Part shown: piece after piece, positions 20,120-61,875 of the stretch | Layout of the letters: every line of letters starts with the position of its first letter | Position numbering within the stretch: the first letter of the stretch is position 1 | From: Thermoanaerobaculia bacterium | Lineage (GTDB): Bacteria > Acidobacteriota > Thermoanaerobaculia > Multivoradales > Multivoraceae | Assembly (NCBI GenBank): GCA_963664405.1 | Contig: OY761158.1 | Location: forward strand, 256,001 to 320,000 | DNA length: 64,000 bases | Direction: 5' to 3' | The notes under the pieces: generated by a model | The model's input: only the letters and a program-made list of their open reading frames with translations | Told to the model about the DNA's origin: nothing | The model's database searches: none | Position numbers and translations under genes: made by a program

Positions 20120-20180
20120 TATGACTTCGAAAGGAGCGTTTGGTATACTTATTCTACAAAGCCGACAATGGAGGTGGAGA

Positions 20181-23003: not shown

Positions 23004-23005
23004 AG

Positions 23006-23548: not shown

Positions 23549-23590
23549 CGAATCGACTGCGAATCGGCGCATCTCCAGAAGGAGGACGAC

Positions 23591-24148: not shown

Positions 24149-24187
24149 GTGCAGGCGTCAAGGATGTGAGTTCGGATAAATCTAGAC

Positions 24188-29575: not shown

Positions 29576-29694
29576 GTCTGTTGGTTCCGGAGTGACGCTT
29601 GTCGCGTCTCGGCCGGGACGCTTCCACTGCGAAGCTCTGCTCGGCGATGTAGACCCACTTCATGGCGTCGCGGAACAGAGTCGCATTTGGGGGC

Positions 29695-29736
29695 TTGACA
29701 TGGTCTTCGTCCGTGTTCCACAATCGGTCATTGACC
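29695..29736 (+). promoter_or_regulatory. Receptor promoter with putative TetR operator
   Basis: TTGACA (29695-29700), CACAAT (29719-29724), then palindrome GGTCA-T-TGACC (29726-29736). Confidence 0.55.
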
Positions 29737-29773
29737 TAAAACAGCAATGGCGGCTTCTCCGGAGGATTGGCTG

Positions 29774-32612: not shown

Positions 32613-32614
32613 AC

Positions 32615-33121
32615 ATGAGAGAGACACCCGAGGCCCGACTCCTCGTCGATCGCCGTCGTCTACTGGCGTCGACCTCGTTGGGAGTCGCTGCGGCGGCTTT
32701 CCTGCCGCGGTCGGCGCGCGCCGACCTGACGGCGGACGAGAAGGCGCATTTACAGACCGCTCGCGACTTCACTAAGGCGCTGGAGACGCCCGACTGGGAT
32801 CGGGTCGAGAGCCTCCTCGCCGAGGACGCCCGATTCTGGACCCACATGGACGCGGCCACCGGCGGGGACTGGGCCCGCAAAGGGGTGAAGGGCCGAACGG
32901 CGATCATGGACACGATGGAGTCGTGCTGCTTTGACAACACGGATCTGAAGCTCATGATCACGCGCGAAGAGGCGCTCGGACACGTGGTCATCCAGGAGCG
33001 TCAAGATAGTTACACCGACGGGGACGGCACTCGAGTCGATGTGGCCATCACCAGTATGTTCCTCGTCCACAAGGGCAAAATCGAGGTTTGGTTCGAGCTT
33101 ATCGGGGAGCTCCCCGCCTAG
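32615..33121 (+). CDS. Tat-exported NTF2-like protein, copy 3
   Basis: DRRRLL; VIQERQD (LEH-like ERxD); ESCCFDN. Confidence 0.8.
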   Translation: MRETPEARLLVDRRRLLASTSLGVAAAAFLPRSARADLTADEKAHLQTARDFTKALETPDWDRVESLLAEDARFWTHMDAATGGDWARKGVKGRTAIMDTMESCCFDNTDLKLMITREEALGHVVIQERQDSYTDGDGTRVDVAITSMFLVHKGKIEVWFELIGELPA

Positions 33122-33231
33122 CGAATCGGCGAACCGGAGAGGGTGCACGACACCAGAGTGATGAGCTGGATCCGGGTTGACGTTCCGTAGGGCTTGGCGA
33201 TAGTGTTCTGACAGCTCTATAGACTGTCAGA

Positions 33232-33663
33232 ATGGAGGCTGCTATGACCGACACTCCGCCCCGCCTTGCCGAGCTAGAGAAGCGACGCCGAGAAGTGCGA
33301 GAGCTGCTGGCCAATATCGGGGAGATGCGCCCCGGATCTTTGGTCGGACGCTACCGCAAGTGTGGCAAGCCGGGCTGCCACTGTGCTCGGCCCTCCGAGC
33401 AGGGGCATGGCCCCAGCTGGTCACTCACCCGCCGAGTCGAGGGCAAGACCGTGACCAAGGTAATCCCCCCAGGCCCAGGCGTCGAGCGCACCAGAGTGCA
33501 GATTGACGAGTGCCGGCGCTTTCGGCGCCTGGCTCGGGAGCTGATCGAGATCAACGAGCAGCTGTGCGACGCGGCACTGCGAAGGGCGGAGGGTCCGGGG
33601 GAGCAAAAAGGGGGCTCCAGACGATCTTCGAGGCCGAGATCGCGACCGAAGTCGAGACGCTGA
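33232..33663 (+). CDS. DUF6788-like zinc-finger ORF of the ISKra4 element
   Basis: MRPGSL..RYRKCGKPGCHC...HGP motif; overlaps the transposase frame. Confidence 0.75.
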   Translation: MEAAMTDTPPRLAELEKRRREVRELLANIGEMRPGSLVGRYRKCGKPGCHCARPSEQGHGPSWSLTRRVEGKTVTKVIPPGPGVERTRVQIDECRRFRRLARELIEINEQLCDAALRRAEGPGEQKGGSRRSSRPRSRPKSRR

Positions 33664-34961
33664 TCAGCCCAGAGGCGGTCGAGGCGCTCGACTTTGAGGC
33701 CTTGGAGACGAGCGTGCGCCGGCGGGCCCTCGAGCTGGCGGCGCGGGCGGTCGAGCAGCGGCTCAATTCGGATCACACCGATCACGTCGGTGCGGCGGCG
33801 CCGTGCGACTGCGGTCAGACGGCTCGCTACGCGGGTCGTCGGGCCAAACGCTTCGAGACCGTGCTCGGAGCGATGCGCCTGGAGCGGGCGTATTACGACT
33901 GTCCCAACTGTAAGACAGGCTTCTGCCCTCGCGACCGGGGGCTGGGTCTGGAAGGGCGCTCGCTGTCGCCGGCCGTCACCCGGATGGTGGGCACCGTTGG
34001 TGCCCTGGTGAGCTTCCAGGAGGGCAGCGAGCTGCTCTCGGAGCTTTCGGGGATCGAGGTCGGCGCGAAACAGGTGGAGCGCACCGCCGAGGCCTTGGGG
34101 CGTGAGATCGCCCAGCATGAGCGACAGGTCGTCGAGTCCGCCAACTCTTCCGAGATCCCGGAGACACTGTACCTGGGAGTGGACGGCACCGGGGTGCCGA
34201 TGCGCCGCTGCGAGCTTACCGGCCGCCCGGGCAAGCAGCCCGACGGATCGGCCAAGACCCGGGAGGTGAAGCTTTGTACGCTCTGGAGCGCCGAAGCCCG
34301 CGACGACGAGGACCGCCCGGTGCGCGATCGGGGCTCGGTGAGCTACTCCGCCGCCATCGAGACGGCGGCTACTCAGGACGTGGACTCAACCGTGGCTCCC
34401 TTCTGGCAGCGAGTCGAGCGCGAAGCGAAGCGTCGAGGCTTCGATCGTGCCCGACGCCAGGTCTTCCTCGGCGATGGGGCACTGTGGATCTGGAATCTCG
34501 CCGACGAGCTCTTTCCTCGGGCGACCCAGATCGTCGACCTCTTCCACGCCATGGAGCACCTCAGCGAGGTGGCGCGGGCGATCTATGGAGCCTCCAGCGA
34601 CCTCGCCACCGCCTGGGCTCGGCAGCGCTATGACGAGCTCGAGGCCGGAGACCTCGACGCCCTTCTCGGAGTCCTCCGTACGCACCAGACCAGCTGTGAG
34701 GAGGCTCGCAAGGCGGCGGCGTACTTCCAACGCAACCAACACCGTATGCGCTACCATCGCTTCCGCGCCAAAGGGCTCTGCACCTCGACCGGCGTCGTTG
34801 AAGCCGGGTGCAAGGTCGTCGTCGGCCACCGCCTCAAGCGCGCTGGGATGCACTGGAGCCTCAACGGCGCTAACGCCATCCTGGCTCTGCGCTGTGCGAG
34901 GCTCAGCGGCCGATTCGAGATGTTCTGGAACTCCACACACCGCTGCCGACACACTGCGTAA
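33510..34961 (+). CDS. ISKra4 family transposase (true start uncertain, possibly frameshift-fused)
   Basis: YLGVDGTGVP, FLGDGALWIW, VDLFHAMEHL and GVVEAGCK...RLKRAGMHWS motifs. Confidence 0.88.
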   Translation: MPALSAPGSGADRDQRAAVRRGTAKGGGSGGAKRGLQTIFEAEIATEVETLISPEAVEALDFEALETSVRRRALELAARAVEQRLNSDHTDHVGAAAPCDCGQTARYAGRRAKRFETVLGAMRLERAYYDCPNCKTGFCPRDRGLGLEGRSLSPAVTRMVGTVGALVSFQEGSELLSELSGIEVGAKQVERTAEALGREIAQHERQVVESANSSEIPETLYLGVDGTGVPMRRCELTGRPGKQPDGSAKTREVKLCTLWSAEARDDEDRPVRDRGSVSYSAAIETAATQDVDSTVAPFWQRVEREAKRRGFDRARRQVFLGDGALWIWNLADELFPRATQIVDLFHAMEHLSEVARAIYGASSDLATAWARQRYDELEAGDLDALLGVLRTHQTSCEEARKAAAYFQRNQHRMRYHRFRAKGLCTSTGVVEAGCKVVVGHRLKRAGMHWSLNGANAILALRCARLSGRFEMFWNSTHRCRHTA

Positions 34962-35054
34962 CAGCCGCACCCAACCACCTCATCTCACAAATCTGACGTA
35001 CACCCAACCGGAGAGGGCTCGCCCCGGGCGCCGCATCTCCAGAAGGAGGACGAC

Positions 35055-35534
35055 ATGGGTTCGACACCAGGCCCCGCACAATCTTCCGCGCTGGCGGACC
35101 CGGCCGGCGCCGCCGCGCACTTTCTGCTCGGAGAATGGGAGGTCACCGTCGGCGACGGTACGCCTATTGGCAAAACCCTCTGGGAGCTGGGTCCCGAGGG
35201 CTGTTACCTGGTCCAGAAGTGGACCGGCCTCGCCGAAGGCGTTCCAGATTCTCTCTGCCTGCTCGCCTACAGCAGCGAAGAGAACAACTGGGCGCTCTTT
35301 GCCGGAGAGTCGAAGCCAGGCGGACGGCGCTCGCTATTCGAAGACGGAAACATGGTTGGCAACGAACTTCGCTTCGTCACCAAGGAAAGCGGAGGCTTGG
35401 CAAAGGGCAAGGCGGGCCGCTTCAGCTACTTCAACCTGCCCGACGGCCGGATCCGCGAGCTATCGCTGCTTTCGTCGGACGGGGGCGAGACCTGGGAGAC
35501 CGAGTACGATCTGGTCTGGCAGCGAAAGAAGTGA
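35055..35534 (+). CDS. DUF1579-like protein copy 2, lacking the signal peptide
   Basis: Same AAGGAGGACGAC RBS as copy 1; hydrophobic signal region absent. Confidence 0.75.
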   Translation: MGSTPGPAQSSALADPAGAAAHFLLGEWEVTVGDGTPIGKTLWELGPEGCYLVQKWTGLAEGVPDSLCLLAYSSEENNWALFAGESKPGGRRSLFEDGNMVGNELRFVTKESGGLAKGKAGRFSYFNLPDGRIRELSLLSSDGGETWETEYDLVWQRKK

Positions 35535-35564
35535 GTCCGGGTAGGGTCGCGCGGGAAAGAAAGC

Positions 35565-36773
35565 ATGAAGAACGATAAGGCGTTGCGGGCTCGGGCCGAG
35601 CGGGTGATTCCCGGAGGCATGTACGGGCACCAGTCGGTGTCCTACAGGATGCCGAAGAACTACCCGCAGTTCTTCGCGCGTGCCGAAGGCTGCCGACTGT
35701 GGGACGTGGACGACAACGAGTACATCGACTTCATGTGCTCGTACGGACCCATGATTGCCGGCTACCGCAATCCGCGCATCTGCGCTGCGGCCGATGCGCA
35801 GCGCGGCGCGCTCGACATCGCGAACGGCCCACCGGCCCTCATCGTGGACTTGGCCGAGCGCCTGGTAGCTCAAGTCGGGCACGCCGACTGGGCGATCTTC
35901 GCGAAGAACGGCAACGATGCGACGACGGTCTGCAACATGGTCGCGCGAGCCAAGAGTGAGAAGCACAAGATCCTGGTTGCGGCCGGCGCTTACCACGGCT
36001 CTCAGCCGTGGGCAAACCACTTGTCGCGTGGAACGCCGGCAGAGGAGCACGCGAACTACCCGACGTTCACGTACAACGACACAGAAAGCCTGCGCGCGGC
36101 CGCCGAGGCTTCCGCCGGCGACCTCGCGGGAATCGCCGTGTCGGCCTTCAAGCACGACGCGGGCTACCCGCAGGAGCTCGTCGACCCGGCCTTCGCCCGC
36201 GCGGTGCGCCAGATCTGCGACTCGGAGGGAGCCGCCCTCATCCTTGACGAGGTGCGGGCCGGGTTGCGTCTGTCGCTGGATGCGAGCTGGGCGACCCTTG
36301 GCGTCGAGCCGGACCTCTCGGCGTGGGGCAAGGCGATAGCAAACGGAGAGCCGCTTGCAGCAGTTCTGGGCAGCGAGGCGTACCGGGACGCCGCGTCGCA
36401 GATCTTTGTCACGGGCTCGTTCTGGTATCAGGCCGCGCCCTTTGCGGCGGCGCTCGCGACGCTCGACGTCGTAGAGGAGCTCGACGCGCCGACCCGGCTC
36501 CTCGAGCTGGGCCAGGCGTTCAGGGCCGGGCTTGCCGAGCAGGCGCAGCGCTACGGCCACGCGATCCAGCAGACCGGTCCGCCGCAGATGCCGACCGTGA
36601 TGTTCGAGGACGACCCCGAGCTATCGAAGGGCCTTGCGTTCTGCGGGCATGCGCTCGCCAACGGAGTTTACTTACACCCCTGGCACAACATGTTCCTGTC
36701 CGTGGCGCACACCGAGCGCGACATCGAGCAAGCCCTGGCCGGCACAGCGCGCGCCTTCCAGGCGCTCGGCTGA
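35565..36773 (+). CDS. Class III PLP aminotransferase, FumI (aminopentol aminotransferase)-like
   Basis: LILDEVRAG and WGKAIANG (PLP Lys); RAERVIPGGMYGH, HADWAIFAKNG, IFVTGSFW and QTGPPQMP segments resemble Sphingopyxis FumI as I recall it. Confidence 0.85.
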   Translation: MKNDKALRARAERVIPGGMYGHQSVSYRMPKNYPQFFARAEGCRLWDVDDNEYIDFMCSYGPMIAGYRNPRICAAADAQRGALDIANGPPALIVDLAERLVAQVGHADWAIFAKNGNDATTVCNMVARAKSEKHKILVAAGAYHGSQPWANHLSRGTPAEEHANYPTFTYNDTESLRAAAEASAGDLAGIAVSAFKHDAGYPQELVDPAFARAVRQICDSEGAALILDEVRAGLRLSLDASWATLGVEPDLSAWGKAIANGEPLAAVLGSEAYRDAASQIFVTGSFWYQAAPFAAALATLDVVEELDAPTRLLELGQAFRAGLAEQAQRYGHAIQQTGPPQMPTVMFEDDPELSKGLAFCGHALANGVYLHPWHNMFLSVAHTERDIEQALAGTARAFQALG

Positions 36774-36795
36774 GCCGACGGCGCCCGGGATTGGG

Positions 36796-38181
36796 ATGTC
36801 AGAGACGGCCGATCAAGCCTCGCCCGCAGCTGAGCGAGAGTCGCCCTACCCGGCGCCAGCCTACGCCTGGTACTGCGTCTTCATCCTGACGGGGATCTAT
36901 CTGAACTCTTTTCTCGATCGGCAGATCCTCGGCCTCCTGGTCGACCCGATCAAGGCCGACATGAAGATCTCGGACACCCAGATGGGTTTTCTCATGGGCC
37001 CCTCGTTTGCGATCGCCTACATCATCGCCGGGCTGCCGCTCGGTTGGCTGGCGGATCGGATGAGTCGGCGCTGGTTGATCGCCCTCGGCCAGTTCTTCTG
37101 GTCGCTCGCCTCGGTGAGCTTCGGACTCGGACGCACCTACTCTCAGCTTCTTGCGGCACGAATCTGCGTCGGAGTCGGCGAGGCATCGCTTGGGCCATCG
37201 GCCTATTCCCTGATTACCGACCTCTTCCCGCGGCGTCGCCTTTCCACGGCTATGAGCGTCTACGGCCTCGGGATCTTTCTGGGAGGCGGTCTCGCCAATT
37301 TGGTCGGCGGCTACGTCCTCGAACTCGTCGGAACCGGCACGCTTTACGATCTGCCTTTCGTCGGTCCGCGCAAATCCTGGCAGATGGTCTTCTTTATCAT
37401 CGCCACGCCGACCATTCCGCTCACTCTCTTGCTCCTGACAATACGCGAGCCGATTCGCAGAGGAGTGCACAAAATAGTAGGAGAGGACGGCACGGCACGG
37501 GCGGCGAAGCTGCCGCTCTCGGCCTTCTTGCGCTACGCCCGTCGCAACGCCAAGACCGTACTGAGCCACAACATCGGGTTCGCCTGGCTCTCCTTCGCCG
37601 GCTACGGTTCCGGCGCCTGGGTACCGTCGCTCTTTATTCGCATCCACGGCTGGGAGCCCGCTCTGACCGGCAAGGTGCTGGGTGTGATCCTTATCACCGT
37701 CGGCCCCCTCGGGATCCTGACCGCCGGCTGGCTCGCCGACTGGCTCGGGGAGCGCGGCTACCGTGACGCCACGATCCGCGTCGGCCTGTTCTCGGCCTTG
37801 GCCCCCTTGCCGCTCGTCGTGGCCTACCCGCTGGTGCCGAACGCGACCTTGGCCATCGTGCTCTACGCCGTTGCCTCCTTCTTCGGGGCGATGCCGTGGG
37901 GGATTGCAGTGGCGGCCATCCACGAGATGATGCCGAATCAGATGCGCGGGCAGGCGACGGCCGTCTATCTTTTCGTGGGCGGCCTTCTCGGCACGGCCTT
38001 AGGCCCACAAATCGTGGCGATCGTCACCGACTACGTCTTCAAAGACGAGATGATGGTGCACTACTCGCTGGCTTTGACTGCGTTAATCGCGAAGGCGTTC
38101 GCCGTCGTCTGCTTGGCGATCTGTCTACGCCACTATACGAAGAGCTTGGATCGACTCGAGAGCTGGTCCTTCGACGACTAA
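36796..38181 (+). CDS. Spinster-family MFS transporter
   Basis: SFLDRQILGLLVDPIKAD..ISDTQMG, G.LADRMSRR, ARICVGVGEA and REP.R motifs. Confidence 0.88.
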   Translation: MSETADQASPAAERESPYPAPAYAWYCVFILTGIYLNSFLDRQILGLLVDPIKADMKISDTQMGFLMGPSFAIAYIIAGLPLGWLADRMSRRWLIALGQFFWSLASVSFGLGRTYSQLLAARICVGVGEASLGPSAYSLITDLFPRRRLSTAMSVYGLGIFLGGGLANLVGGYVLELVGTGTLYDLPFVGPRKSWQMVFFIIATPTIPLTLLLLTIREPIRRGVHKIVGEDGTARAAKLPLSAFLRYARRNAKTVLSHNIGFAWLSFAGYGSGAWVPSLFIRIHGWEPALTGKVLGVILITVGPLGILTAGWLADWLGERGYRDATIRVGLFSALAPLPLVVAYPLVPNATLAIVLYAVASFFGAMPWGIAVAAIHEMMPNQMRGQATAVYLFVGGLLGTALGPQIVAIVTDYVFKDEMMVHYSLALTALIAKAFAVVCLAICLRHYTKSLDRLESWSFDD

Positions 38182-38192
38182 AGGAGCGCGCC

Positions 38193-39167
38193 ATGGATTT
38201 CTCGCAAACGGAACTGCTCGACGTCTACCGTCTGATGCGAACGATTCGATCGTTCGAAGAGAAGCTCGAGGAGCTGGTCGCGGCCGGCAAGGTCGGGGGG
38301 TTCATGCACATGTACGCCGGCGAGGAAGCCATCGCGGTGGGCGTGTGTGCGCACCTCGATGACGACGATCAGGTCGGCTCGACCCACCGGGGACATGGCC
38401 ACTGCATCGCCAAGGGGGTGGATGTGAAGGCCATGATGGCCGAGCTCTTCGGCCGCACCACTGGGACCAATCGGGGCAAGGGTGGCTCCATGCATATCGC
38501 CGACGTCGACAGGGGAATGCTCGGCGCGAACGGAATCGTCGGCGGCGGCATTCCGCTGGTGACGGGTGCCGCCCTCAGCGCGCAGGTGCAGGGCCGGAGC
38601 AACGTCGCCGTCAGCTTCTTCGGTGATGGCGCTACCAATCAGGGGCAGTTCCACGAATCGCTGACCATGGCATCGAACTGGAAGCTGCCCGCGGTGTACG
38701 TGTGCGAGAACAATGGCTTCGGCGAGTTCACGCCGACCGATTTCGCAGTGCCCGTGAAGGACATCGTCGAGAGAGCGTCTTCCTACGGAATGCGGGCCGT
38801 CATCGCCGACGGCATGGATTTCTTCGACGTCTACGAGAAGGCGGGACAAGCGATCGAGCTGGCACGTCAGGGAGAGGGGCCGACACTCCTCGAATGCAAG
38901 ACCTATCGGTTCTCCGGCCACTACGTGGGCGACACGACTCCGTATCGCGACAAGGAAGAAGCCGAGGACTGGATCCAGAACCGCGATCCGCTCGATCTCT
39001 TCGAAGCCCGGGTTACCGAAGCGAACCTGCTCGAATCCGACGACTGCCGCACGGTCGACGGCGAGGTGGCCGCCTTTCTCAGCGAAGCCTTCGAGCAGGC
39101 CGAGCAGGGGCCGATGCCCACTCCCGATGACGTCCTGACGGACGTCTACGTGAGGTACAGCGAATGA
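38193..39167 (+). CDS. acoA: TPP-dependent acetoin-dehydrogenase-like E1 alpha
   Basis: AAAGGAG RBS; HMYAGEEA, THRGHGHCIAKG, FFGDGA..(N) TPP motif, TYRF.GH..GD. Confidence 0.88.
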   Translation: MDFSQTELLDVYRLMRTIRSFEEKLEELVAAGKVGGFMHMYAGEEAIAVGVCAHLDDDDQVGSTHRGHGHCIAKGVDVKAMMAELFGRTTGTNRGKGGSMHIADVDRGMLGANGIVGGGIPLVTGAALSAQVQGRSNVAVSFFGDGATNQGQFHESLTMASNWKLPAVYVCENNGFGEFTPTDFAVPVKDIVERASSYGMRAVIADGMDFFDVYEKAGQAIELARQGEGPTLLECKTYRFSGHYVGDTTPYRDKEEAEDWIQNRDPLDLFEARVTEANLLESDDCRTVDGEVAAFLSEAFEQAEQGPMPTPDDVLTDVYVRYSE

Positions 39168-40171
39168 CGCGTGAACTCAACACCGGCGGTGCCATCAACG
39201 AGGCCATCGCGATCGCGATGCGAAGCGACCCGAAGGTGATCCTGATCGGCGAGGACGTGGCAGGCGGTGGCGATCGATCATCGGAAGGCACCGAAGAGAT
39301 GGGCGGCGTGCTCGGCACTACGCGCGGCCTGGTTGGTGAGTTCGGCATGAACCGCGTGCGCGATACGCCGATCGCCGAGATGGGCCTGATCGGAACGGCC
39401 GTCGGCGCGGCGGTTACGGGGCTGCGTCCGATCGCCGAGCTGATGTTCATCGACTTCCTCGGCACCTGTCTCGACCCGCTGCTCAATCAGGCGGCGAAGC
39501 TCCGCTACATGTTCGGCGGCAAGGTGAAGGTGCCGCTCACCGTTCGCACCGTGAGCGGTGCCGGCATGCAGGCCGCCGCCCAACACTCCCAGTCGCTGTA
39601 TTGGATCACCACAGGAATCCCCGGTCTGAAGACGGTGATCCCGTCGTCGCCGCGGGACGCGAAGGGGCTGCTGCTTGCCGCCATCCGCGACGACGACCCC
39701 GTGATCTTCTGTGAAGCCAAGGGCATCTTGAACGAGGTCGGCGAGGTTCCCGAGGGTGATTACGAAATCCCCCTCGGCGAAGCCAACTTGATCCGCGAGG
39801 GCAGCGACGTCTCCCTGGTCGCTTTCGGGGCAATGGTGAAGGTGGCGGTGGAGGCGGCCGAGGCGCTCGACGGCGCCGGCACCAGTGCGGAGATCCTCGA
39901 TCTACGCTCGCTCTCGCCGCTCGACGAAGGGGCGATCCTGCGCACGCTCGAAAAGACCGGGCGTCTGGTCGTGATCGACGAATCGACACCGCGCTGTTCG
40001 GTGGCCCGCGACGTGGCGGCCTTGTGTGTCGACCGCGGCTTCGACTTCCTGCAGGCACCCGTGAAGTGCGTCACGGCGCCGCACACGCCCGTACCTTTCA
40101 GCGCTGTTCTAGAGCAGGCGTTCGTCCCCTCGGCCCAGGACGTTCTCGACGCTGTCGGCGAAATGGGCTGA
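39164..40171 (+). CDS. acoB: Acetoin-dehydrogenase-like E1 beta
   Basis: GEDVAGG, DTPIAE, ELMFIDF, AAAQHSQ and APHTPVPFS motifs. Confidence 0.88.
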   Translation: MTRELNTGGAINEAIAIAMRSDPKVILIGEDVAGGGDRSSEGTEEMGGVLGTTRGLVGEFGMNRVRDTPIAEMGLIGTAVGAAVTGLRPIAELMFIDFLGTCLDPLLNQAAKLRYMFGGKVKVPLTVRTVSGAGMQAAAQHSQSLYWITTGIPGLKTVIPSSPRDAKGLLLAAIRDDDPVIFCEAKGILNEVGEVPEGDYEIPLGEANLIREGSDVSLVAFGAMVKVAVEAAEALDGAGTSAEILDLRSLSPLDEGAILRTLEKTGRLVVIDESTPRCSVARDVAALCVDRGFDFLQAPVKCVTAPHTPVPFSAVLEQAFVPSAQDVLDAVGEMG

Positions 40172-40177
40172 GCGAAC

Positions 40178-41449
40178 ATGGCCACCGCGATCTCGATGCC
40201 GAAGCTCGGCATGACCATGGAGGAGGGCACGGTCATCGAGTGGCCGCTGTCCATCGGCGAGCCGGTCGAGAAGGGCGAGATCGTCCTGATCATCGAGTCC
40301 GAGAAGGCCGAAGTCGAAATCGAGGCTGCGACCAGTGGCATCCTCCGGCACACCTACATCGAAACGGGGGACACAGTCCCCTGTGGAACCTTGCTTGGCG
40401 CCATCACCGACACGGTCGAAGAGGAGTTCGACGCCGAGTCGTTTCGAGCCACCGAGGATCGCCCAGAGCCCAAGAGCGCGTCGGGGCTCCAGGTGAAGAC
40501 CGCGCCAGCCTCCGTAGCCAGGTCGACCGCGGCGGCCAGCAAGCCGATCGTGCCCGCCGCGCGCGCCTTGGCCAAGAGACTCGGGATCGATCTTCAACGC
40601 GTTGCCGGAACAGGCCCGGGCGGGCGCGTCACGAAGCAGGACGTCGAAGCCCATGCGGCGGCACGCGAAGCGCTGGTCGAGGTGGCCAAGGGCGTGCGGC
40701 TGGAGGTGCTCGACGCCGGTAGCGGGGACGACGTCGTCCTCCTGCCCGGTCTCGGCACCGACGTTTCGGCCTTCGCGCGGCAGGCGCCTCTGTTGGCCGA
40801 GCGATTTCGGGTGCGCGGCGTCAACCCGCGCGGCGTGGGCCTCTCCGACGCGCCCGATTCAGAAACCTACAGCGTCGCCCAGATGGCGTCGGATGCCGCT
40901 GCCGTATACGAAGGGGCTGCGCATGTGATCGGTGCCAGCCTCGGTGCCGCTGTGGCACTGGAGCTCGCGCTGGACCAGCCCGATCGCGTGAAGTCCCTCA
41001 TCCTGATCACACCCTTCGTCGAGACCACGCCGCGCCTGCTGGCGGTGGCAGAGGGCTGGCGCCGCATGGCGGCCGAGACGACTCCCGAGACCTTGGCCGC
41101 GGCGCTGCTGCCCTGGTTCTTCTCATCGGGGCTCCTGGCTGACACCGCGGTGCGCAGTCGCATGTTGCGAGGCCTGTCCCAGACCGTGGCGCGAGTTCCC
41201 GCCGCCACACTCGACCGCATGATCGCCGGAATGGCGAGCTGGTCCGGTACCCGCGTCGACGACCTCGCCAAGCTATCGGTGCCGACGCTCGTCGTCGCCG
41301 CCGGCGAGGACCTGCTCACGCCCGGCTCGGACGCCATCGCCCGGGCCATCCCCGCAGCGCGGCTGCACGTCGAGCCGCGGGCGGGTCACGCGGTCGCACT
41401 GGAAGCTCCCGACGCGGTCAACCGGGCGATCGCGGACCACCTCGGGTGA
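40178..41449 (+). CDS. acoC: AcoC-type E2: lipoyl domain + E3-binding domain + alpha/beta hydrolase
   Basis: MPKLGMTMEEG..ESEKA lipoyl domain; GTGPGGRVTKQDV; GASLG nucleophile elbow and AGH His. Confidence 0.82.
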   Translation: MATAISMPKLGMTMEEGTVIEWPLSIGEPVEKGEIVLIIESEKAEVEIEAATSGILRHTYIETGDTVPCGTLLGAITDTVEEEFDAESFRATEDRPEPKSASGLQVKTAPASVARSTAAASKPIVPAARALAKRLGIDLQRVAGTGPGGRVTKQDVEAHAAAREALVEVAKGVRLEVLDAGSGDDVVLLPGLGTDVSAFARQAPLLAERFRVRGVNPRGVGLSDAPDSETYSVAQMASDAAAVYEGAAHVIGASLGAAVALELALDQPDRVKSLILITPFVETTPRLLAVAEGWRRMAAETTPETLAAALLPWFFSSGLLADTAVRSRMLRGLSQTVARVPAATLDRMIAGMASWSGTRVDDLAKLSVPTLVVAAGEDLLTPGSDAIARAIPAARLHVEPRAGHAVALEAPDAVNRAIADHLG

Positions 41450-41639
41450 ATCATCACGCCGGACTGGTGACTCGGTTGTAGAGGCCGGTGTTGAAATCCC
41501 TGATGAGATCGATTGCATCGTGTTGTGGCTCATCAAAGCGATCTCTCTCGGACATAGCGGTTCCCTCTACCCTGCAGGCTCGGCGTAGACGGCCGCGACC
41601 GAGTTCCGCGATGAGATGGGCGGGCGGGCTCCAGATTGC

Positions 41640-42413
41640 CTAGCCGAGCGGTCCTGCACTCAGCTCACCGCCGTCCAGAACGTAGGTGGTAGCGGTCGTG
41701 AACCTTCCTGCCTGAGTCGCCAGGGTCAACACCAGGGCCGCGATATCCTCCGGCTCCGCAATGCGGCCCATCGGGTTGATGGCGATGTTGTTTTTCTCCA
41801 CCCACTCGATCAGGCCCGCAGCCAGTTCAGTCCGGACCAGACCGGGAGCGATGGCAGCCGTGCGGATGCCGTCCTTCGCCCACTCCTTGCCGATCATCTG
41901 GCTGAAGTTGATCAACGCCGCCTTGGAGGGCGGGTAGATGCCCAGTCCTGGCGACGCCCGGACGCCCTCGTTCGACGCGATGTTGATGATCATGCCGCCG
42001 CCGCGCTCTTTCATCGTTGTCCGGCACAGCTGCGACAGTCGGATCGGTCCCCACACGTTGATGGCCATCACCCGCTGGAAGTCGTCCTCCTTCAGCTCGG
42101 CGATCGGGGTGCCGCCGCCGCCGGCGGCTGCGTTGTTGACCAGGATGTCAATGCCACCGAGCTCGGCGATCACCTGCTCGTAGAGGTCGTTGACGGCTTC
42201 GGTACTACCGACATCGGCCTGAATCGCTACTGCGCGGCGGCCAAGCTTGCGCAGCTCGCCACCGGTAGCCTCGAGTGCCTCGAGACCTCGAGCAGCGATC
42301 GCGACATCGGCTCCGTTCTCGGCAAACGCCAGGGCGATGGCACGACCGATGCCCTTGGAGCCACCGGTGACCAGCGCTACCTGGCCGTCCATGGAAAAAT
42401 CGACGATTGGCAT
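41640..42413 (-). CDS. Short-chain dehydrogenase/reductase
   Basis: TGGSKGIG, NNAA, YPPSK and DGG motifs; GGAGG RBS before ATG 42413. Confidence 0.9.
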   Translation of the reverse strand: MPIVDFSMDGQVALVTGGSKGIGRAIALAFAENGADVAIAARGLEALEATGGELRKLGRRAVAIQADVGSTEAVNDLYEQVIAELGGIDILVNNAAAGGGGTPIAELKEDDFQRVMAINVWGPIRLSQLCRTTMKERGGGMIINIASNEGVRASPGLGIYPPSKAALINFSQMIGKEWAKDGIRTAAIAPGLVRTELAAGLIEWVEKNNIAINPMGRIAEPEDIAALVLTLATQAGRFTTATTYVLDGGELSAGPLG

Positions 42414-42460
42414 GATGACCTCCGTTCCTGATTTGGTGGGTGGTTGAGCTGGGGCGACTG

Positions 42461-44170
42461 TCAGTTCGGGCCCGGGGTGCCCGCTTCGACCGGCTTGGCG
42501 TCGACGTACTCGAAGTAGGTCAGGCGCCACTCGCCGTCGCGCTCGTCGACCAGCAGGTCGAGTCCGAAATTCAGGGTGCCTCTGATCCATCGCACACCGG
42601 TGACGCTGGCGGTCGCACCCTGCCATTCGATCTTCATCGACTCGGTCTCGGCCGTGGTGCCGGCAGTGGGGCCGAGGTATTCGCGCCAGACCTCCCTCGA
42701 CGCGCCGGTGTCCGATCTGAAATCTTCGGCGACATAGGTCATCATGAGATCGAGATCCCCGGCCGTTATCGCCACCATCATCTGGCGGATCATGACAGCT
42801 ACCGCCTCGGTATCGTCCGAGCCGCGAGCCCTCCCCCCTCGCTGCGCCCCGTCGGCGGTGCGCGTGGCGGAGCTGTCGGTCGCTTTCGTGGACCGCACCG
42901 CGAGGTCGAAGCTTGCAAGATGCCCCTCGTCCTTCACGTATACCCGTGATCCGGAGAGTGCCACGTGGGCCCATGTGGCAGAGCTCGCCACCTCCCAAGA
43001 GGCCAGCTCCCGATAGCCCTCCGGGTCCGCCGCGATCACTTTGAGCTCGGCGGTGTCGGTCAGCGCGAGCAGGCGATCGCCGACGGCGATGACCGACGAG
43101 TACGCCGCCCACCGCCCCGGGCTCTGCCAGACAATCTTGCCGGTCATGGGATCGAGACAGACGAAGGTGCCGGCCCTCTTGTAGGAGCGGAAGTACAGAT
43201 AGTCGCCGACGCGCACCGGCGAATCCATGTAGAGCTCGACCTGCGTCGTCTTCCACACCTCGGTCACCTTCCAATCGCCGTCCCCTTTCGGGGGCTCGAC
43301 CTTGAGCGCCGCGGTCCCCCACTGGTAGCCCGAGAGGATGAACATGCCCTTGTAGAGGATGGTGGTGGGAGTGTTCTGGGAGAAGGCGGTTGCAATCTCC
43401 TTCGACCACAGCAGCTCACCGTCACTCGCCCGGACAGCGAAGAAGGCCACATTGCTCATCGTTACGATCTGGCGAACCCCTCCGTGAGTGAACGCCATCG
43501 GGGAGGCGTAAGCGGGCGGTCCGTCTGACCGCCAGACCTCCCTTCCGGTCGCCTTGTCGAAAGCAATCAGGGCTCCGTGATCGTCCTCATGCGCTGAGCC
43601 GGTGACGCCGACCGGGACGATGATCAGATTTCCCTCCACCAGAGGCGACGCCGCCGTTCCCCATATCGGGTAGGGCGGGTTGTAGACATCCTCGAAGGTC
43701 TTCTCCCAGCGCACCGCGCCGGACTTGGCATCCAAAGCCAGGAGGCGCTCGCGGATGCCGAAACTGTAAACCGAATCGCCTTCGGCCAGCATGGTCGACT
43801 TGGGGCCAGGGCCGTACTGGATGGCCGCGGTCGCCGGTACGTACGGAACCGTGTACGAATGCCGCCACAGCTCCTTGCCGGTGGACTTCGAAAGGGCGAG
43901 GACGACTTCTTCCTCACCCTGTCGCGCGTGGATGAAGACGCGGTCGCCGACGATGATCGGAGCGGACTGCCCAACGCCGACGTGCACCTTCCACAGACCG
44001 TGGAGGGCGGCGGGAAGCTCCGCCGGCAGCTCGCTTTCGGCAGCCACTCCGTCGCGCTGCGGCCCTCGCCACTGCGGCCAATCGGCTGCCCATGCAACCG
44101 GGCCCGAAGTGGTCAGGACGAGGGTCAGGAGCGTCAGCAGCAACACGAGGATCCATCGTCTGCCTTTCAC
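42461..44170 (-). CDS. PQQ-type beta-propeller-NTF2 fusion, copy 3
   Basis: Collinear paralog; GTG start overlaps the AraC stop. Confidence 0.88.
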   Translation of the reverse strand: MKGRRWILVLLLTLLTLVLTTSGPVAWAADWPQWRGPQRDGVAAESELPAELPAALHGLWKVHVGVGQSAPIIVGDRVFIHARQGEEEVVLALSKSTGKELWRHSYTVPYVPATAAIQYGPGPKSTMLAEGDSVYSFGIRERLLALDAKSGAVRWEKTFEDVYNPPYPIWGTAASPLVEGNLIIVPVGVTGSAHEDDHGALIAFDKATGREVWRSDGPPAYASPMAFTHGGVRQIVTMSNVAFFAVRASDGELLWSKEIATAFSQNTPTTILYKGMFILSGYQWGTAALKVEPPKGDGDWKVTEVWKTTQVELYMDSPVRVGDYLYFRSYKRAGTFVCLDPMTGKIVWQSPGRWAAYSSVIAVGDRLLALTDTAELKVIAADPEGYRELASWEVASSATWAHVALSGSRVYVKDEGHLASFDLAVRSTKATDSSATRTADGAQRGGRARGSDDTEAVAVMIRQMMVAITAGDLDLMMTYVAEDFRSDTGASREVWREYLGPTAGTTAETESMKIEWQGATASVTGVRWIRGTLNFGLDLLVDERDGEWRLTYFEYVDAKPVEAGTPGPN

Positions 44171-45249
44171 TGTCTAGCCTCCCTCGATTCTCGACCTGTT
44201 GAGGTCACGCTGTGCGCCGGAAACCACGTCACTTCGTTGCGAAACTTGCTCGGTGGCTGCCCGGTCCAACGCTTGAAGGCATGCCGGAAGTTGGCCGCGT
44301 CGCTGTAGCCTAGTCGTTCGGCGATCGCCTCTACGGTCAGCTCCGATTGCGACAAGTAGCGCAGGGCGAGATCCCGGCGTACCTCAGCCACGACCTCACG
44401 GTAGGACGTACCCGCCGCGGCGAGTCGCCGCCGCACCGAGCGTCGAGAAAGGTGGAGATGATGGGCGACGTCGCTCAGCGATGCGCTCGCATCGGCATGC
44501 TCGACGTAGCTTCGCACCCGAGCGATCGGATCGGATGAGGTACGAAGCTCTTCGATCGCCGCCGCACAGAGATCGAGGCAGTGGGAATGGGTGGCGGCGT
44601 CGCGCAGGGGCAGAGCCCTGTGAAAGAGGTCGGCGCTGACGAGCAACTGCGCAGTGCGACCCGAGGGGTCGAGGGCACGGATGAGGCCGGGCCTTTGCAA
44701 GCGTGAGGCCCTCTCCAGGCGTGAGGCTCTCTCGGAATCGCAATCGCGATCGAGGTCGCAACTCCGAGGGCTAGATCCGAGGAGATCGTGCAGGATGCGT
44801 GTCAGCTTCGCAAACTCCAGGGCGAGGAAGAAATCTCGATCGTCGGTGGCGAAGGCGAAGGTGTCCTCGAAAGAGACTGCCGTGCCCTGGCCGGTGGAGC
44901 GGAGGCGAATCGAGAACTTCAGGTTGAAGAGCGGCGCCAGGCTCCCGGCAAAGAGGTCGAGGGCGTCGCTAAGACGCTCGCAGGTGAGAAGCGCGTAGCC
45001 CGCCAGGCCGAACGAGGACAGGCGTAGCTGCGAGCCGGTGGTAACCGCCAGATCGTGTGCTGGAGCGATCTCGCTGGCAGCGCGCGCGATGGCGACCTGC
45101 TCGCGCATCGAGATCTTTCGATGTCGATCTCCCGGCTCGATCCCTCGCCCTCGCAGTAGACGCTCGACGACGGAGGAAGGCGCCCCTAGGCGCACCGCGG
45201 CCGCGGCGAGGATGCAAACCTCAGAGGTGGAGTAGACGGGCTCGTCCAT
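44167..45249 (-). CDS. AraC family regulator (OruR-like)
   Basis: FGLAGYALLT N-domain; C-terminal double HTH (IAERLGYSDAANFRHAFKRWTG); start moved to ATG 45249 because the upstream ORF part is MITE sequence. Confidence 0.85.
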   Translation of the reverse strand: MDEPVYSTSEVCILAAAAVRLGAPSSVVERLLRGRGIEPGDRHRKISMREQVAIARAASEIAPAHDLAVTTGSQLRLSSFGLAGYALLTCERLSDALDLFAGSLAPLFNLKFSIRLRSTGQGTAVSFEDTFAFATDDRDFFLALEFAKLTRILHDLLGSSPRSCDLDRDCDSERASRLERASRLQRPGLIRALDPSGRTAQLLVSADLFHRALPLRDAATHSHCLDLCAAAIEELRTSSDPIARVRSYVEHADASASLSDVAHHLHLSRRSVRRRLAAAGTSYREVVAEVRRDLALRYLSQSELTVEAIAERLGYSDAANFRHAFKRWTGQPPSKFRNEVTWFPAHSVTSTGRESREARQ

Positions 45250-45298
45250 GCTCGGCGGCAGCCAGGGCTCGTGGCGCGTGCCGCGGCCGGCAGTCACA

Positions 45299-45465
45299 CT
45301 AGTACATGCGGCCATAAGTACGGGTACGTTTCGAGGGACGATGCGCCTCGCCAGCAAGGCGCGTGACAGAGGCGTACCTGGCAGTACGCCGCAGGGAGCG
45401 CAACGCTGCTGGAGAGGATGCAGCGTCGCTCAAAACGTGTCCGTATTTGTGGCCGCGTGTACTAG
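45299..45465. mobile_element. CTAG-bounded MITE type C, copy 2
   Basis: Same length and termini as 8539-8705. Confidence 0.8.
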
Positions 45466-45558
45466 TCACCATGGACACACGAGTCGGCTCCCCACTTGCG
45501 AACACAGATGGCCGAGCGGATCCGGTCCCCGACGTCCGTTGGGGGACCGGCGGCACAG

Positions 45559-46077
45559 TCAGGCGGGCAGCTCCCCAACGAGCTCAAACCACACCTGGAC
45601 CTTGCCTTCGCTGACCAGGAACATCGCGCTGATGTTCCCTCCCGCAGGGCCTTGGGCGGTGGTGAAGGTCTCCTCACGATAGTGAAGGACCAAGTGGCCC
45701 AGCGCTTCTTCGCGCGTGATCTTGAATTCGGGATCTTTCAGGCCGGACATCACGTCCTTCATCCGGTCGACGATCGCCGCCCGGCCCTTTATCTCTGCCC
45801 GTGCCCAATCTCCGCTGGCAGAGTGGCTCATGAACCGGGCGTCCTCGGCGAGGAGGCTCGAGAAGCGATCCCAGTCACTGGCCTCCAGCGCCTTAGCGTA
45901 GTCGTGCGCGGTCTTGACATGCGCCTGCTCGTCGGCCGTTAATGCGGCGCCCGCCGAGCGCGGCAAGAAGGCCGCCGCAGCGAGTCCCATCGAGGTCGAT
46001 GCCAGTACAGTACGACGATCAACGCCGCGTCGCTTCTCGGGTATCGAAGTCATGCGCTTCCCTTTCTTCTCGGTCAT
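45559..46077 (-). CDS. Tat-exported NTF2-like protein, copy 4
   Basis: DRRTVL twin-arginine signal; paralog of copies 1-3. Confidence 0.8.
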   Translation of the reverse strand: MTEKKGKRMTSIPEKRRGVDRRTVLASTSMGLAAAAFLPRSAGAALTADEQAHVKTAHDYAKALEASDWDRFSSLLAEDARFMSHSASGDWARAEIKGRAAIVDRMKDVMSGLKDPEFKITREEALGHLVLHYREETFTTAQGPAGGNISAMFLVSEGKVQVWFELVGELPA

Positions 46078-46108
46078 ACGGTCCCCTTCTCGCTCATTTC
46101 AGGGATAT

Positions 46109-48925: not shown

Positions 48926-48963
48926 CAGCCAATCCTCCGGGAAAGCCCGCCATGTCATTTTTA

Positions 48964-49003
48964 GGTCGACGACCCATTGTTGCATAGTCGAGGACCATGT
49001 CAA
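48964..49003 (-). promoter_or_regulatory. Receptor promoter with putative TetR operator, copy 2
   Basis: TTGACA (49003-48998), AACAAT, then palindrome GGTCG-T-CGACC (48964-48974). Confidence 0.55.
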
Positions 49004-49130
49004 GCCCCAGAAATGCGACTTTGCTCCGCGACGCCACGAAGTGGCGCCATGAAGTGGGTCTACGTTGCCGAGCAGAGCATCGCAGTCTCTCTGTCGAGAC
49101 GCGACAGGCGTCACGCCGGATGCAACAGAC

Positions 49131-60667: not shown

Positions 60668-60674
60668 CGTACGC

Positions 60675-61856: not shown

Positions 61857-61875
61857 CGCGACCGTGGCGGCAGGG

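Follow-up and report, generated by a model that had tools for sequence, protein, structure and literature searches.

The five genes between positions 35565 and 41449 all read in one direction and encode, in order, a class-III aminotransferase (AT), a spinster-like MFS transporter, the alpha and beta subunits of a TPP-dependent E1 and an AcoC-type 'E2' (Table 1). They lie in a stretch of 64,000 nt, referred to here as the window, from a Thermoanaerobaculia bacterium (assembly GCA_963664405.1, contig OY761158.1, positions 256,001-320,000 of the forward strand). The AT and MFS genes of this block are 22 nt apart and the MFS and E1-alpha genes 11 nt, E1-alpha and E1-beta overlap by 4 nt, and 6 nt separate E1-beta from the AcoC gene; this spacing suits one transcript, and the GC3 of all five frames (0.72-0.86) is typical of real genes in this DNA; the gene content and coordinates given in a preliminary description agree with the open reading frames and domains. 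The MFS frame opens at 36634, the ATG at 36796 being the likely start. Contigs from the runs of two studies span 38132-41520 and 38132-41682 with no differences from the window and, on the basis of these contigs, which start at 38132, the block DNA is not an assembly artefact; among the records listed, none bridged the AT/MFS junction with at least 31 letters on both sides.

Table 1. Features of the block and its surroundings in the window.
Feature	Coordinates	Strand	Evidence and remarks
TetR-family regulator, BetI-type C-terminal domain	28892-29575	+	PF13977, E 1.4e-8; first gene of upstream uptake cassette
TonB-dependent receptor	29747-32612	+	Overlapping frames 29747-31861 and 31518-32612; CarboxypepD_reg, Plug, beta-barrel
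SnoaL / limonene-epoxide-hydrolase-like (NTF2-fold) protein	32615-33121	+	PF07858 8e-9, PF12680 3e-8; in repeated cassette
ISKra4-family insertion sequence (IS)	33138-35005	+	NF033572, 313 bits (cut-off 205); transposase ORF 33510-34961
Small 159-aa protein	35055-35534	+	GGAGG ribosome-binding site; GC3 0.76
FumI-family class-III (PLP-dependent) AT	35565-36773	+	Aminotran_3 (PF00202), 143 bits
Spinster-like MFS transporter, 461 aa	36796-38181	+	MFS_1, 151 bits
E1-alpha, TPP-dependent, acetoin-dehydrogenase-like	38193 (likely start)-39167	+	E1_dh, 272 bits
E1-beta	39164-40171	+	Transket_pyr, Transketolase_C
AcoC-type 'E2'	40178-41449	+	Biotin_lipoyl, E3_binding and Abhydrolase domains (Pfam)
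Classical SDR oxidoreductase	41640-42413	-	Frame and GC3 analysis; adh_short, 188 bits; convergent with operon
PQQ-type beta-propeller protein	42461-44170	-	PQQ_2, 107 bits
AraC-family regulator	44167-45357	-	Best model QhpR (NF049968), 130 bits (cut-off 250)

The best solved relative of the AT is the fumonisin-detoxifying transaminase FumI (PDB 6HBS, 'aminopentol aminotransferase'; E 1e-130, 440 bits), to which it is ~51% identical (201 of 397 aligned positions, counted by hand on the alignment). HemL reached at best ~133 bits (~1e-37) among PDB entries, and all NCBIfam HemL models scored under their cut-offs; the resemblance to FumI named in the preliminary description is thus real, and the AT belongs with FumI rather than with HemL. 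Lys256, in AWGKAIANG, aligns with the PLP lysine of FumI and is unchanged in all 30 homologues. In the tree of ATs, the 44-row clade that holds the window's enzyme is sister to a four-row clade containing the Novosphingobium AT, the top scorer against FumI among the fetched ATs (588 bits). The class-III fold is common to the AT, to FumI of Sphingopyxis sp. MTA144 and to the tested homologues FumIB, FumTSTA, FumUPTA and FumPHTA, although the host here is an uncultured Acidobacteriota-like genome rather than a sphingomonad. The characterized FumI enzymes have as substrate an amine that bears no carboxylate, and the product of FumI is a 2-keto-3-ol (PMC3136697). PMC9858248 reports tests of three further homologues, with 62-74% identity to FumI or FumIB, the two enzymes already known; all three acted on hydrolysed fumonisin B1, removing the amino group of its 2-amino-3-ol head. 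The ~51% identity of our AT to FumI lies below that range. The fum cluster itself has tricarballylate-utilization genes (FumE, FumF and FumG), and the accessible portion of its description mentions no E1/AcoC system.

Both E1 subunits are homologous to those of pyruvate and branched-chain 2-oxo-acid dehydrogenases, and E1-alpha shows the GDG...NN TPP motif. However, E1-alpha is 50% identical to its counterpart in 'aco' triads labelled by PGAP, compared with 28% to the other E1 of the genome, and E1-beta is 46-56% identical to AcoB-type subunits, compared with 40% to the other E1-beta of the genome, so that the names acoA and acoB, given to these genes beforehand, are supported, as is 'hydrolase-type acoC' by the domain architecture of the third protein. 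The latter matches PRK14875, which models the E2 of acetoin dehydrogenase, over the full length of the model (positions 2-369 of 372); its Lys43, Ser254 (in GASLG), Asp378 and His404 are shared by all 34 homologues, and it is only 25-30% identical to labelled AcoC proteins. None of the three triad proteins reached a curated NCBIfam cut-off: E1-alpha scored 360 bits against TIGR03182 (cut-off 394), the AcoC-like protein 160 bits against PRK14875 (cut-off 307), and the scan of the triad gave 309.5 for PRK09212 (cut-off 321). As in AcoABC systems of the PRK14875 type, the E1 is split into alpha and beta subunits with a TPP motif, the E2 combines a lipoyl domain with an alpha/beta-hydrolase bearing a conserved Ser-Asp-His triad and has no 2-oxoacid_dh catalytic domain, and the operon is without an E3 gene. 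The block differs from them in the extra E3-binding domain of its AcoC-like protein and in the transaminase and lipid-type transporter linked to it. That no E3 gene lies within the block had been remarked on before and is correct, but it is uninformative: outside the block, the genome has two lipoamide dehydrogenase genes that score above cut-off, and other aco operons also do without one. The ORFs scanned around the block included no AcoX, AcoR or butanediol dehydrogenase, the adjoining SDR being generic (161 bits against the BudC model, cut-off 270).

The homology of the E1 (human PDH E1-alpha, E 3e-61; TIGR03182, 360 bits) would also suit a route modelled on a transaminase feeding a branched-chain 2-oxo-acid dehydrogenase, in which deamination of an unusual amino acid by the AT would give a 2-oxo acid, for E1/E2 to decarboxylate oxidatively to an acyl-CoA. 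We consider such a route distinctly unlikely: PRK14875 is the sole full-length model match of the AcoC-like protein, and hydrolase-type E2 proteins are known only from acetoin systems. The closeness of the E1 to aco-type triads rather than to the genome's own 2-oxo-acid E1 and the carboxylate-free substrate of FumI (PMC3136697) argue in the same direction.

Among PDB entries the transporter comes closest to 6E8J, a bacterial homologue (E 1.5e-37); human SPNS2 and then SPNS1 come next (E ~3e-15 to 5e-15), and these nearest solved relatives uphold the earlier assignment as a spinster MFS, although the match to the human members is weak and near the score for DgoT (7e-14). The family is TC 2.A.1.49, and its bacterial members are not known to have a defined substrate or transport direction. 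Eukaryotic spinster proteins are lipid exporters, TPP enzymes are capable of carboligation and transaminases are reversible, all of which count for biosynthesis followed by export: E1 would join an activated C2 unit and an aldehyde to give an acyloin, the AT would aminate this to a 2-amino-3-ol and the MFS would export the product. However, the lipoyl-bearing E2 with its E3-binding domain points to oxidative cleavage, the block is without chain-building genes, and its neighbours are uptake receptors and amine oxidases; we therefore judge this direction of flux to be highly improbable.

Amine-oxidizing genes are plentiful in the window and comprise a copper amine oxidase, a methylamine-dehydrogenase-heavy-chain-like gene with MauE and the QhpR-like regulator, QhpR being the regulator of quinohemoprotein amine dehydrogenase, whose model cut-off the AraC-family gene does not reach. 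The region is pieced together from paralogous cassettes, with paralogues of the TetR-family regulator at 49131-49814(-), of the SnoaL-like protein at 24188-24760 and 45559-46077(-), and of the PQQ-type protein at 4111-5871(-), 26712-28406(-) and 62661-64000. The TonB receptor likewise has an intact, 1001-aa paralogue at 46109-49114(-); its own second frame terminates like a receptor C-terminus, and the two-frame form is probably due to a frameshift or an assembly error.

The block itself forms part of a duplication. Positions 35008-41600 are present twice in the genome with 22 differences (99.7% identity), and the adjoining 41600-44091 of the two copies show 223 differences (~91% identity), a contrast which indicates that the block was moved or converted as a unit; on their divergence, the flanks are older than the block. 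In the second copy the MFS is frameshifted. The ISKra4-family element sits precisely where the near-identical block begins on the left and is absent from the second operon copy; copies 96-97% identical to it occur at two other sites in the genome, and the joint without it (33143 to 35022) is present in contigs of three of four runs.

The preliminary description had itself named a linkage confined to this genome as speaking against its proposal; the synteny check found the exact set in this genome only. The survey of the AT covered 80 genome loci (full 10-kb flanks in 52), and none of the 79 besides the window carried the exact set, apart from one distant analogue (the MAG locus L066). A parallel survey of 80 triad loci, with all three genes in 52 and at least 2.7 kb in front in 23, also gave none, and no full-length AcoC homologue occurred in 40 related genomes. 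The triad was absent from the five MAGs with the nearest ATs (93-95% identical), and in Ca. Multivorans MAGs, which have unrelated flanks and no triad, DNA identity to ours is 95% for the AT gene and 92% for the SDR gene. There the SDR orthologue adjoins the AT divergently; in loci L001-L003 the SDR protein is 90-91% identical and the two genes lie on opposite strands. The family of the triad is found widely and on its own, among varied neighbours, which implies that it has a role independent of the AT.

These distributions, the patchwork character of the region and the IS at the block edge are what would be expected had recombination or the IS fortuitously joined an AT, with its SDR partner, to an MFS-E1-AcoC module in a heavily rearranged island, the triad degrading acetoin or another substrate of its own and the AT serving a different amine. 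We think this unlikely, though by no means negligible, since the close spacing suits one transcript, the block has been kept twice as a unit and similar associations have arisen in other lineages.

Plasmids of Shinella HZN7, Agrobacterium T29 and Sinorhizobium RAC02 carry, in uncharacterized clusters, the same functional pairing, a FumI-family AT being accompanied by an E1 of the aco type and an E2 of the hydrolase type; identities to the window's proteins are 52% (AT), 34% (E1) and 28% (AcoC). These clusters contain a fused E1-alpha-beta, an ABC binding protein, the FumI-like AT and a class-IV AT; genes for AcoC, a kinase and a class II aldolase lie close by. They thus differ from the block in having a single fused E1 rather than a split one, ABC transport rather than an MFS, and additional genes for an ACAD, a DUF1537-type kinase and the class II aldolase. 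A fused E1-alpha-beta also lies near the FumI-family AT of L066, and a split transketolase adjoins such an AT in Variovorax VAI-C, Rhizobium SSA_523 (on a plasmid) and the MAG L071. A kinase with a class II aldolase accompanies the AT in seven of the 12 fetched plasmid loci and two of the 80 genome loci. The acid-sugar kinases near some FumI-family genes could imply carboxylated substrates, as decarboxylation of a 2-oxo acid would require, but the transketolase partners act on ketols. Mapped onto the AT tree, the fused E1 has at least two origins and the transketolase at least three, the window adding one more. In at least five other settings, each independent, FumI-family ATs thus stand next to a TPP-dependent cleaving enzyme; as read from the tree, they have been joined independently to alpha-hydroxyketone-cleaving enzymes in several lineages. 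It is these recurrences that back the coupling of a FumI-type transaminase with TPP-dependent C-C cleavage envisaged in the preliminary description.

We therefore favour, tentatively and at somewhat less than an even chance, a recently assembled catabolic operon in which a vicinal amino alcohol, a compound with a 2-amino-3-ol head, would be transaminated to an alpha-hydroxyketone and cleaved with TPP to an acyl unit and an aldehyde. The substrate would pass the inner membrane via the spinster-like MFS, after possibly crossing the outer membrane via the neighbouring TonB-dependent receptor. The AT would pass its amino group to a 2-oxo acid, giving an alpha-hydroxyketone (2-oxo-3-ol, acyloin), whose C2-C3 bond the E1-alpha-beta with TPP would split; the aldehyde would leave, and the AcoC-like protein would take up the acyl (acetyl) unit on its lipoyl arm. 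From there its hydrolase domain may transfer the acyl unit to CoA, the lipoamide being reoxidized by an E3 encoded elsewhere. A long-chain, sphingoid-like substrate is plausible by analogy with the spinster family, the nearby TonB receptors and FumI. Counting for this catabolic reading are the FumI-family AT, the aco-type E1/E2, the tight spacing, the duplication as a unit, the recurrences, the amine-oxidizing neighbours and the E3 genes elsewhere. Counting against it are the linkage in this genome only, the triad alone elsewhere, the sub-cut-off scores, the ~51% identity to FumI, the absence of an aldehyde dehydrogenase from the block, the IS upstream and the frameshifted second MFS. If correct, it would represent an undescribed way of degrading amino alcohols.

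Three features adjoining the five genes, namely the small upstream gene, the convergent SDR gene and the IS element, had been overlooked in the preliminary description. At the SDR position, a plus-strand ORF (41616-42431) was rejected as spurious, the minus-strand SDR being the real gene. The 159-aa gene lies 30 nt upstream of the AT, within the duplicated block. Its product gave no Pfam or NCBIfam matches and none in the loci fetched from other genomes; the five matches in its own genome are itself, the second copy and three more distant paralogues. It is possibly DUF1579-like, an atlas feature match of 0.92 that we treat as a lead.

The five genes listed in the preliminary description, encoding an aminotransferase (AT), an MFS transporter, E1-alpha and E1-beta subunits and an AcoC-like protein, were all confirmed in place on the plus strand by ORF calling and domain searches (see the table). 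That description had overlooked the insertion sequence and the 159-aa gene upstream, the short-chain dehydrogenase/reductase (SDR) gene downstream, the TetR, TonB-dependent receptor (in two overlapping frames) and SnoaL/limonene-epoxide-hydrolase-like genes that precede the block, and the richness of the 64-kb window in amine-oxidising functions. The intervals between the five genes are, from 5' to 3', 22 nt, 11 nt, a 4-nt overlap and 6 nt, and third-position G+C is high in five of the five frames, as in real genes of this 64% G+C genome. A consensus scan of 32500-45600 for promoters and terminators gave about as many hits as shuffled sequence (2 versus 1.3 and 4 versus 5.8, respectively), so that it is the gene spacing that argues for an operon. 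The window matches contigs of two studies' public runs without a single difference over 38132-41520 and 38132-41682, and the contiguity of the MFS, E1 and AcoC genes is therefore real DNA. A 1198-nt public-run contig spans 36756-37953; among the public-run records listed, none bridged the AT/MFS junction with at least 31 letters on each side.

Coordinates of the block and of other features of the window
Feature	Position	Strand	Remarks
Sulfatase-TPR protein	1173-3596		
Copper amine oxidase	6220-8187		
Repeated cassette, sites	20022-24760; 28892-33121; 45559-49814(-); genome C1:2.62 Mb		
ISKra4-family insertion sequence	33138-35005		transposase 313 bits, cut-off 205
159-aa gene	35055-35534		GGAGG ribosome-binding site; 30 nt upstream of AT
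Class-III aminotransferase (AT)	35565-36773	+	
MFS transporter	ORF opens 36634; first ATG past AT stop 36796; end 38181	+	461 aa
E1-alpha subunit	likely start 38193, end 39167	+	
E1-beta subunit	39164-40171	+	
AcoC-like protein	40178-41449	+	423 aa; lipoyl, E3-binding and alpha/beta-hydrolase domains
Classical SDR	41640-42413	-	adh_short, 188 bits
HEPN + nucleotidyltransferase pair	49915-50828	-	
PIN-domain gene	53601-54098		
Methylamine-dehydrogenase-heavy-chain-like gene with MauE	60107-62117	-	
PQQ-type propellers			four in window; weak matches to 'acido-empty-quinoprotein'

The MFS protein is spinster-like by sequence, as had been suggested, its best solved relative being 6e8j (E 1.5e-37), which we take to be the Hyphomonas spinster homologue; human SPNS2 and SPNS1 follow at about 3e-15, barely ahead of DgoT. 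The resemblance of the AT to FumI, proposed in the preliminary description, was borne out by alignment: the best solved relative is 6hbs, 'aminopentol aminotransferase' (E 1e-130, 440 bits, residues 4-400), and the next PDB matches, glutamate-1-semialdehyde aminomutases, score about 133 bits. PMC9858248 gives 6HBS_A as FumI of Sphingopyxis sp. MTA144. The two proteins are about 51% identical (201/397, by hand count of the alignment midline), and the PLP lysine, Lys256 of the AT, is aligned with that of FumI and does not vary in 30 of 30 homologues. To the HemL-like gene of this genome the AT is 29% identical.

The AcoC-like protein matches the NCBIfam model for acetoin dehydrogenase E2 (PRK14875) over its full length, although its 160 bits fall short of the cut-off of 307, and all three proteins of the triad (E1-alpha, E1-beta and AcoC) fall below curated cut-offs. 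Residues Lys43, Ser254 (in GASLG), Asp378 and His404 of the AcoC-like protein are invariant in 34 of 34 homologues. As none of 14 control genomes had a protein above the cut-off of the NCBIfam AcoC model, reference AcoABC proteins were taken from plasmid records. To the PGAP-labelled acetoin dehydrogenase triads of Rhizobium and Terrarubrum plasmids the window's E1-alpha is 50% and its E1-beta 46-56% identical, compared with 28% and 40%, respectively, to the genome's other E1 pair; identity of the AcoC-like protein to labelled AcoC proteins is no more than 25-30%. The absence of an E3 gene from the block, remarked on in the preliminary description, was dropped as a meaningful feature, because the genome has two lipoamide dehydrogenase genes above cut-off at other places. 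The labelled triads themselves (L188, Rhizobium sp. N324 plasmid; L189, Terrarubrum plasmid) are surrounded by sugar ABC-transporter and SDR genes or by PTS-sorbitol genes, on which ground hydrolase-type AcoC systems may act on ketols besides acetoin.

Acetoin-type E1 enzymes split CH3-CO-CH(OH)-R, transketolase splits HOCH2-CO-CH(OH)-R, and a kinase with a class II aldolase splits phosphorylated ketols; the three types act on a shared target, a carbonyl next to a carbinol. FumI turns a 2-amino-3-ol into such an alpha-hydroxyketone, its product from hydrolysed fumonisin B1 (HFB1), 2-keto-HFB1, having been identified by NMR according to PMC3136697. Because the product of FumI is what these partners attack, the most economical reading of the window is a four-step route, in which a substrate would be taken up; transaminated to an alpha-hydroxyketone; cleaved between C2 and C3 in a TPP-dependent step that loads the acyl unit onto the lipoyl arm and releases an aldehyde; and the acyl unit passed to CoA by the hydrolase domain, with E3 encoded elsewhere in the genome. 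We put this route, with transamination of a vicinal amino alcohol followed by TPP-dependent C2-C3 cleavage, at slightly short of an even chance. An amino-acid route via a 2-oxo acid would draw on the same genes, and we consider it improbable; operation in the biosynthetic or export direction, rather than in uptake, is very improbable indeed. The spinster-like transporter, the TonB-dependent receptors, the nearby NTF2-fold proteins and the analogy with FumI would point to a long-chain, sphingoid-like base as the substrate, which we think unlikely; the data would be met just as well by small amino alcohols or by aminopolyols.

The preliminary description, which had proposed that the operon imports vicinal amino alcohols, transaminates them to long-chain acyloins and cleaves these by AcoAB-type chemistry into an acetyl unit and an aldehyde, had taken linkage confined to this genome as evidence against itself. 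We followed the linkage from both sides, with GC3-filtered ORF calling in high-GC comparison loci. For the AT we took the best 80 of at least 598 matching genome stretches, 52 of which extended a full 10 kb to either side; no locus except L066 had a homologue of the MFS, E1-alpha, E1-beta or AcoC at E 1e-10 or better with coverage of at least 50%. Five Candidatus Multivorans MAGs have ATs 93-95% identical to the window's, and the triad is absent from them. At the DNA level, loci L001-L003 share with the window only the AT (35561-36783, 95%) and the SDR (41639-42432, 92%), with no other match to the 64-kb window in their 21-kb flanks, and loci L027 and L042 share the AT gene alone. Where present in the Ca. 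Multivorans MAGs, the SDR is divergent from the AT, unlike the arrangement in the window. The sharing of AT and SDR alone, in differing relative orientation, suggests gene-sized transfer or recombination between related genomes. From the other side, no full-length match to the AcoC-like protein was found in 40 related genomes of the same family or order. Among 80 metagenome loci with AcoC relatives 52-70% identical to the window's, the triad was complete in 52 (E1-alpha up to 84%, E1-beta up to 90% identical), and in none of the 80 did a FumI-like AT or the window's MFS lie nearby, 23 of them reaching at least 2.7 kb ahead of the triad. No outside family recurred in more than about 12 of the 80, and a Pfam scan of 50 triad neighbours gave a mixture of TetR, thiolase, SDR, CoA-transferase III, PhyH and efflux pumps; the triad family mostly stands alone, without an AT. 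The exact linkage is thus not conserved at the AT loci, at the triad loci or in the 40 relatives, which would leave the original interpretation in trouble by its own measure.

Two more results alter this assessment, the duplication of the block and its counterparts in other lineages. The block is present in two copies in the 6.78-Mb genome, which differ at 22 positions over 35008-41600 (99.7% identity), exactly the extent of the small gene, AT, MFS, E1-alpha, E1-beta and AcoC, and at 223 positions over 41600-44091 (about 91%); the cassettes upstream of the two copies are 85-87% identical. Such a block within more divergent flanks has evidently been moved or converted as one unit, recently, inside older paralogous surroundings. 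In the second copy an extra C after the position matching 36998 breaks the MFS frame (C1:2619782-2621165). A third MFS paralogue (C1:3822768-3824142, 84% nucleotide identity) is split over two frames, and its neighbours, a serine recombinase, an integrase and a two-component system, are uninformative on substrate. The ISKra4-family element, with 96-97% identical copies at two other genome sites, lies exactly at the left edge of the window's block copy and is absent from the second. Its insertion looks recent or polymorphic, because contigs of three of four public runs contain a joint lacking it (33143 to 35022, with 5 letters between). That two modules were fortuitously juxtaposed in a rearranging island is a reading we consider unlikely, though not negligibly so; the points that weigh against the four-step route are that no aldehyde dehydrogenase gene lies within the block, that the triad scores below cut-off and mostly occurs alone, that close relatives of the AT lack it, and that an insertion sequence stands directly upstream. 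Should the coupling prove unreal, the block would still illustrate clearly how an operon is assembled through gene-sized transfer and duplication.

Comparable associations occur in other lineages. Plasmid records matching the AT at E 1e-60 or better numbered 15, of which 12 were fetched and screened with neighbour proteins from the annotated records (record H30, at 39% identity, was left out). On plasmids of Shinella sp. HZN7, Agrobacterium sp. T29 and Sinorhizobium sp. RAC02 the genes for a fused E1-alpha-beta, an ABC binding protein, a FumI-like AT and a class-IV AT follow one another, with a hydrolase-type AcoC a few kb away, and two more Shinella plasmids have the same spacing, by coordinates only. 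A split transketolase adjoins the AT in Variovorax paradoxus VAI-C and Rhizobium sp. SSA_523 (2 of the 12 fetched loci), a DUF1537-type or PfkB kinase and class II aldolase occur in 7 of the 12, and 3 of the 12 have none of the fused E1, transketolase or kinase/aldolase. Within the best 80 of the at least 598 stretches, locus L066 shows, one after another, a penicillin-acylase-family gene, a GntR regulator, a fused E1-alpha-beta (56% identical to the Shinella protein) and then the AT; at L071 the AT is accompanied by a split transketolase, a kinase and an aldolase, and at L047 by a kinase and an aldolase. Since identity to the window's proteins is just 34% for the Shinella E1 and 28% for its AcoC, the associations of FumI-like AT with E1/AcoC are, to judge from their sequences, separate recruitments and not one inherited cluster.

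In a quick maximum-likelihood tree of 92 AT rows (tblastn segments of at least 370 residues, shorter ones being dropped), the window's AT falls with five Ca. Multivorans rows in a six-row clade (SH-aLRT 100), itself part of a larger clade of 44 rows, from MAGs of Acidobacteriota, Spirochaetota and marine Gammaproteobacteria, in which no row besides the window's has E1-, transketolase- or kinase/aldolase-type neighbours. A sister four-row clade holds the Novosphingobium AT, which at 588 bits against FumI was the top of four ATs scored, the window's included. Besides the window, the fused-E1 label needs at least two origins on this tree and the transketolase label at least three, counts that are a lead rather than a statistic, because related rows carry the same labels and Rhizobiaceae are over-represented among the plasmids. 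On this comparative evidence, FumI-family transaminases have been joined independently, in other lineages, to alpha-hydroxyketone-cleaving enzymes. In several loci (L195, of V. paradoxus VAI-C, and L066, L064, L070, L073, L074, L076 and L078) FumI-like ATs occur with penicillin-acylase-family and amidase genes, GntR regulators and peptide-type ABC transporters, a context frequent in Alpha- and Betaproteobacteria; the acylase and amidase genes suggest that an N-acylated amine is deacylated first and the free amine then transaminated.

A broader reading, which taken as a whole we regard as doubtful, is that a widespread, undescribed degradation of vicinal amino alcohols (e.g. 1-deoxysphingoid and sphingoid bases, hydrolysed fumonisins and other aminopolyols) begins with FumI-family transaminases. 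Cleavage of the hydroxyketone would fall to any of three interchangeable modules, an acetoin-type E1/AcoC (window, Rhizobiaceae plasmids), a split transketolase or a kinase with class II aldolase, and the window's version, with its spinster-like importer and TonB-dependent receptors, would be specialised for converting long-chain 2-amino-3-alkanols to acetyl-CoA and a fatty aldehyde. If true, it would supply candidate enzymes for the steps of fumonisin catabolism after 2-keto-HFB1, at which the pathway ends as described in the accessible parts of PMC3136697, PMC2933618, PMC9858248 and a 2024 review (PMC11291262); the founding fum cluster paper (Heinl et al. 2010) may list relevant genes. The full-text literature searched yielded no description of a transaminase plus acetoin-type route for amino alcohols and nothing relevant on 1-deoxysphinganine degradation or on sphingoid base catabolism with transketolase, and literature searches found no paper on Candidatus Multivorans and no structure paper under 6HBS. 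Taken singly, the parts belong or come close to known families (FumI family, acetoin-type E1/E2, spinster-like MFS); their combination, not described in the texts searched, makes a candidate new pathway supported by comparative context. Were the coupling real, it would provide a chemical logic for bacterial breakage of the C2-C3 bond in aminopolyols and 2-amino-3-ol lipids, mycotoxin backbones and toxic 1-deoxysphingoid bases among them. It would also mean that acetoin-type dehydrogenases act on more than acetoin, and would offer testable enzymes in culturable Shinella, Agrobacterium, Variovorax and Novosphingobium as well as in this uncultured genome.

The genes around the block include a cassette of TetR (BetI-type), TonB-dependent receptor, 159-aa DUF1579-like and SnoaL/limonene-epoxide-hydrolase-like genes, repeated at 75-89% identity, and these recurring cassettes look like a family of putative uptake modules. 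The receptor genes at 29747-32612 and 20022-23003 are each split into two frames or ORFs, which are either real frameshifts/pseudogenes or homopolymer errors of long-read assembly. No Pfam or NCBIfam model matched the 159-aa protein, whose five matches all lie in its own genome (itself, the second copy and three more distant paralogues); an atlas feature search gave DUF1579 at 0.92, as a lead only. Downstream, the minus strand carries a row of genes that starts with an AraC-family regulator, whose best model, QhpR, scores below cut-off, continues with a PQQ-type propeller and ends with the SDR. Taken whole, the window is an amine-oxidation island, to which the copper amine oxidase, the methylamine-dehydrogenase-heavy-chain-like gene with MauE, the QhpR-like AraC regulator, the four PQQ-type propellers and the sulfatase-TPR protein are assigned. 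A plus-strand ORF at 41616-42431 was rejected as a gene, being antisense to the SDR with a GC3 of 0.65 and a junk-like translation; many such antisense shadows occur in ORF lists of this high-GC genome. The HEPN/nucleotidyltransferase pair and the PIN gene are toxin-antitoxin-like modules, lying just past the amine-oxidation island.
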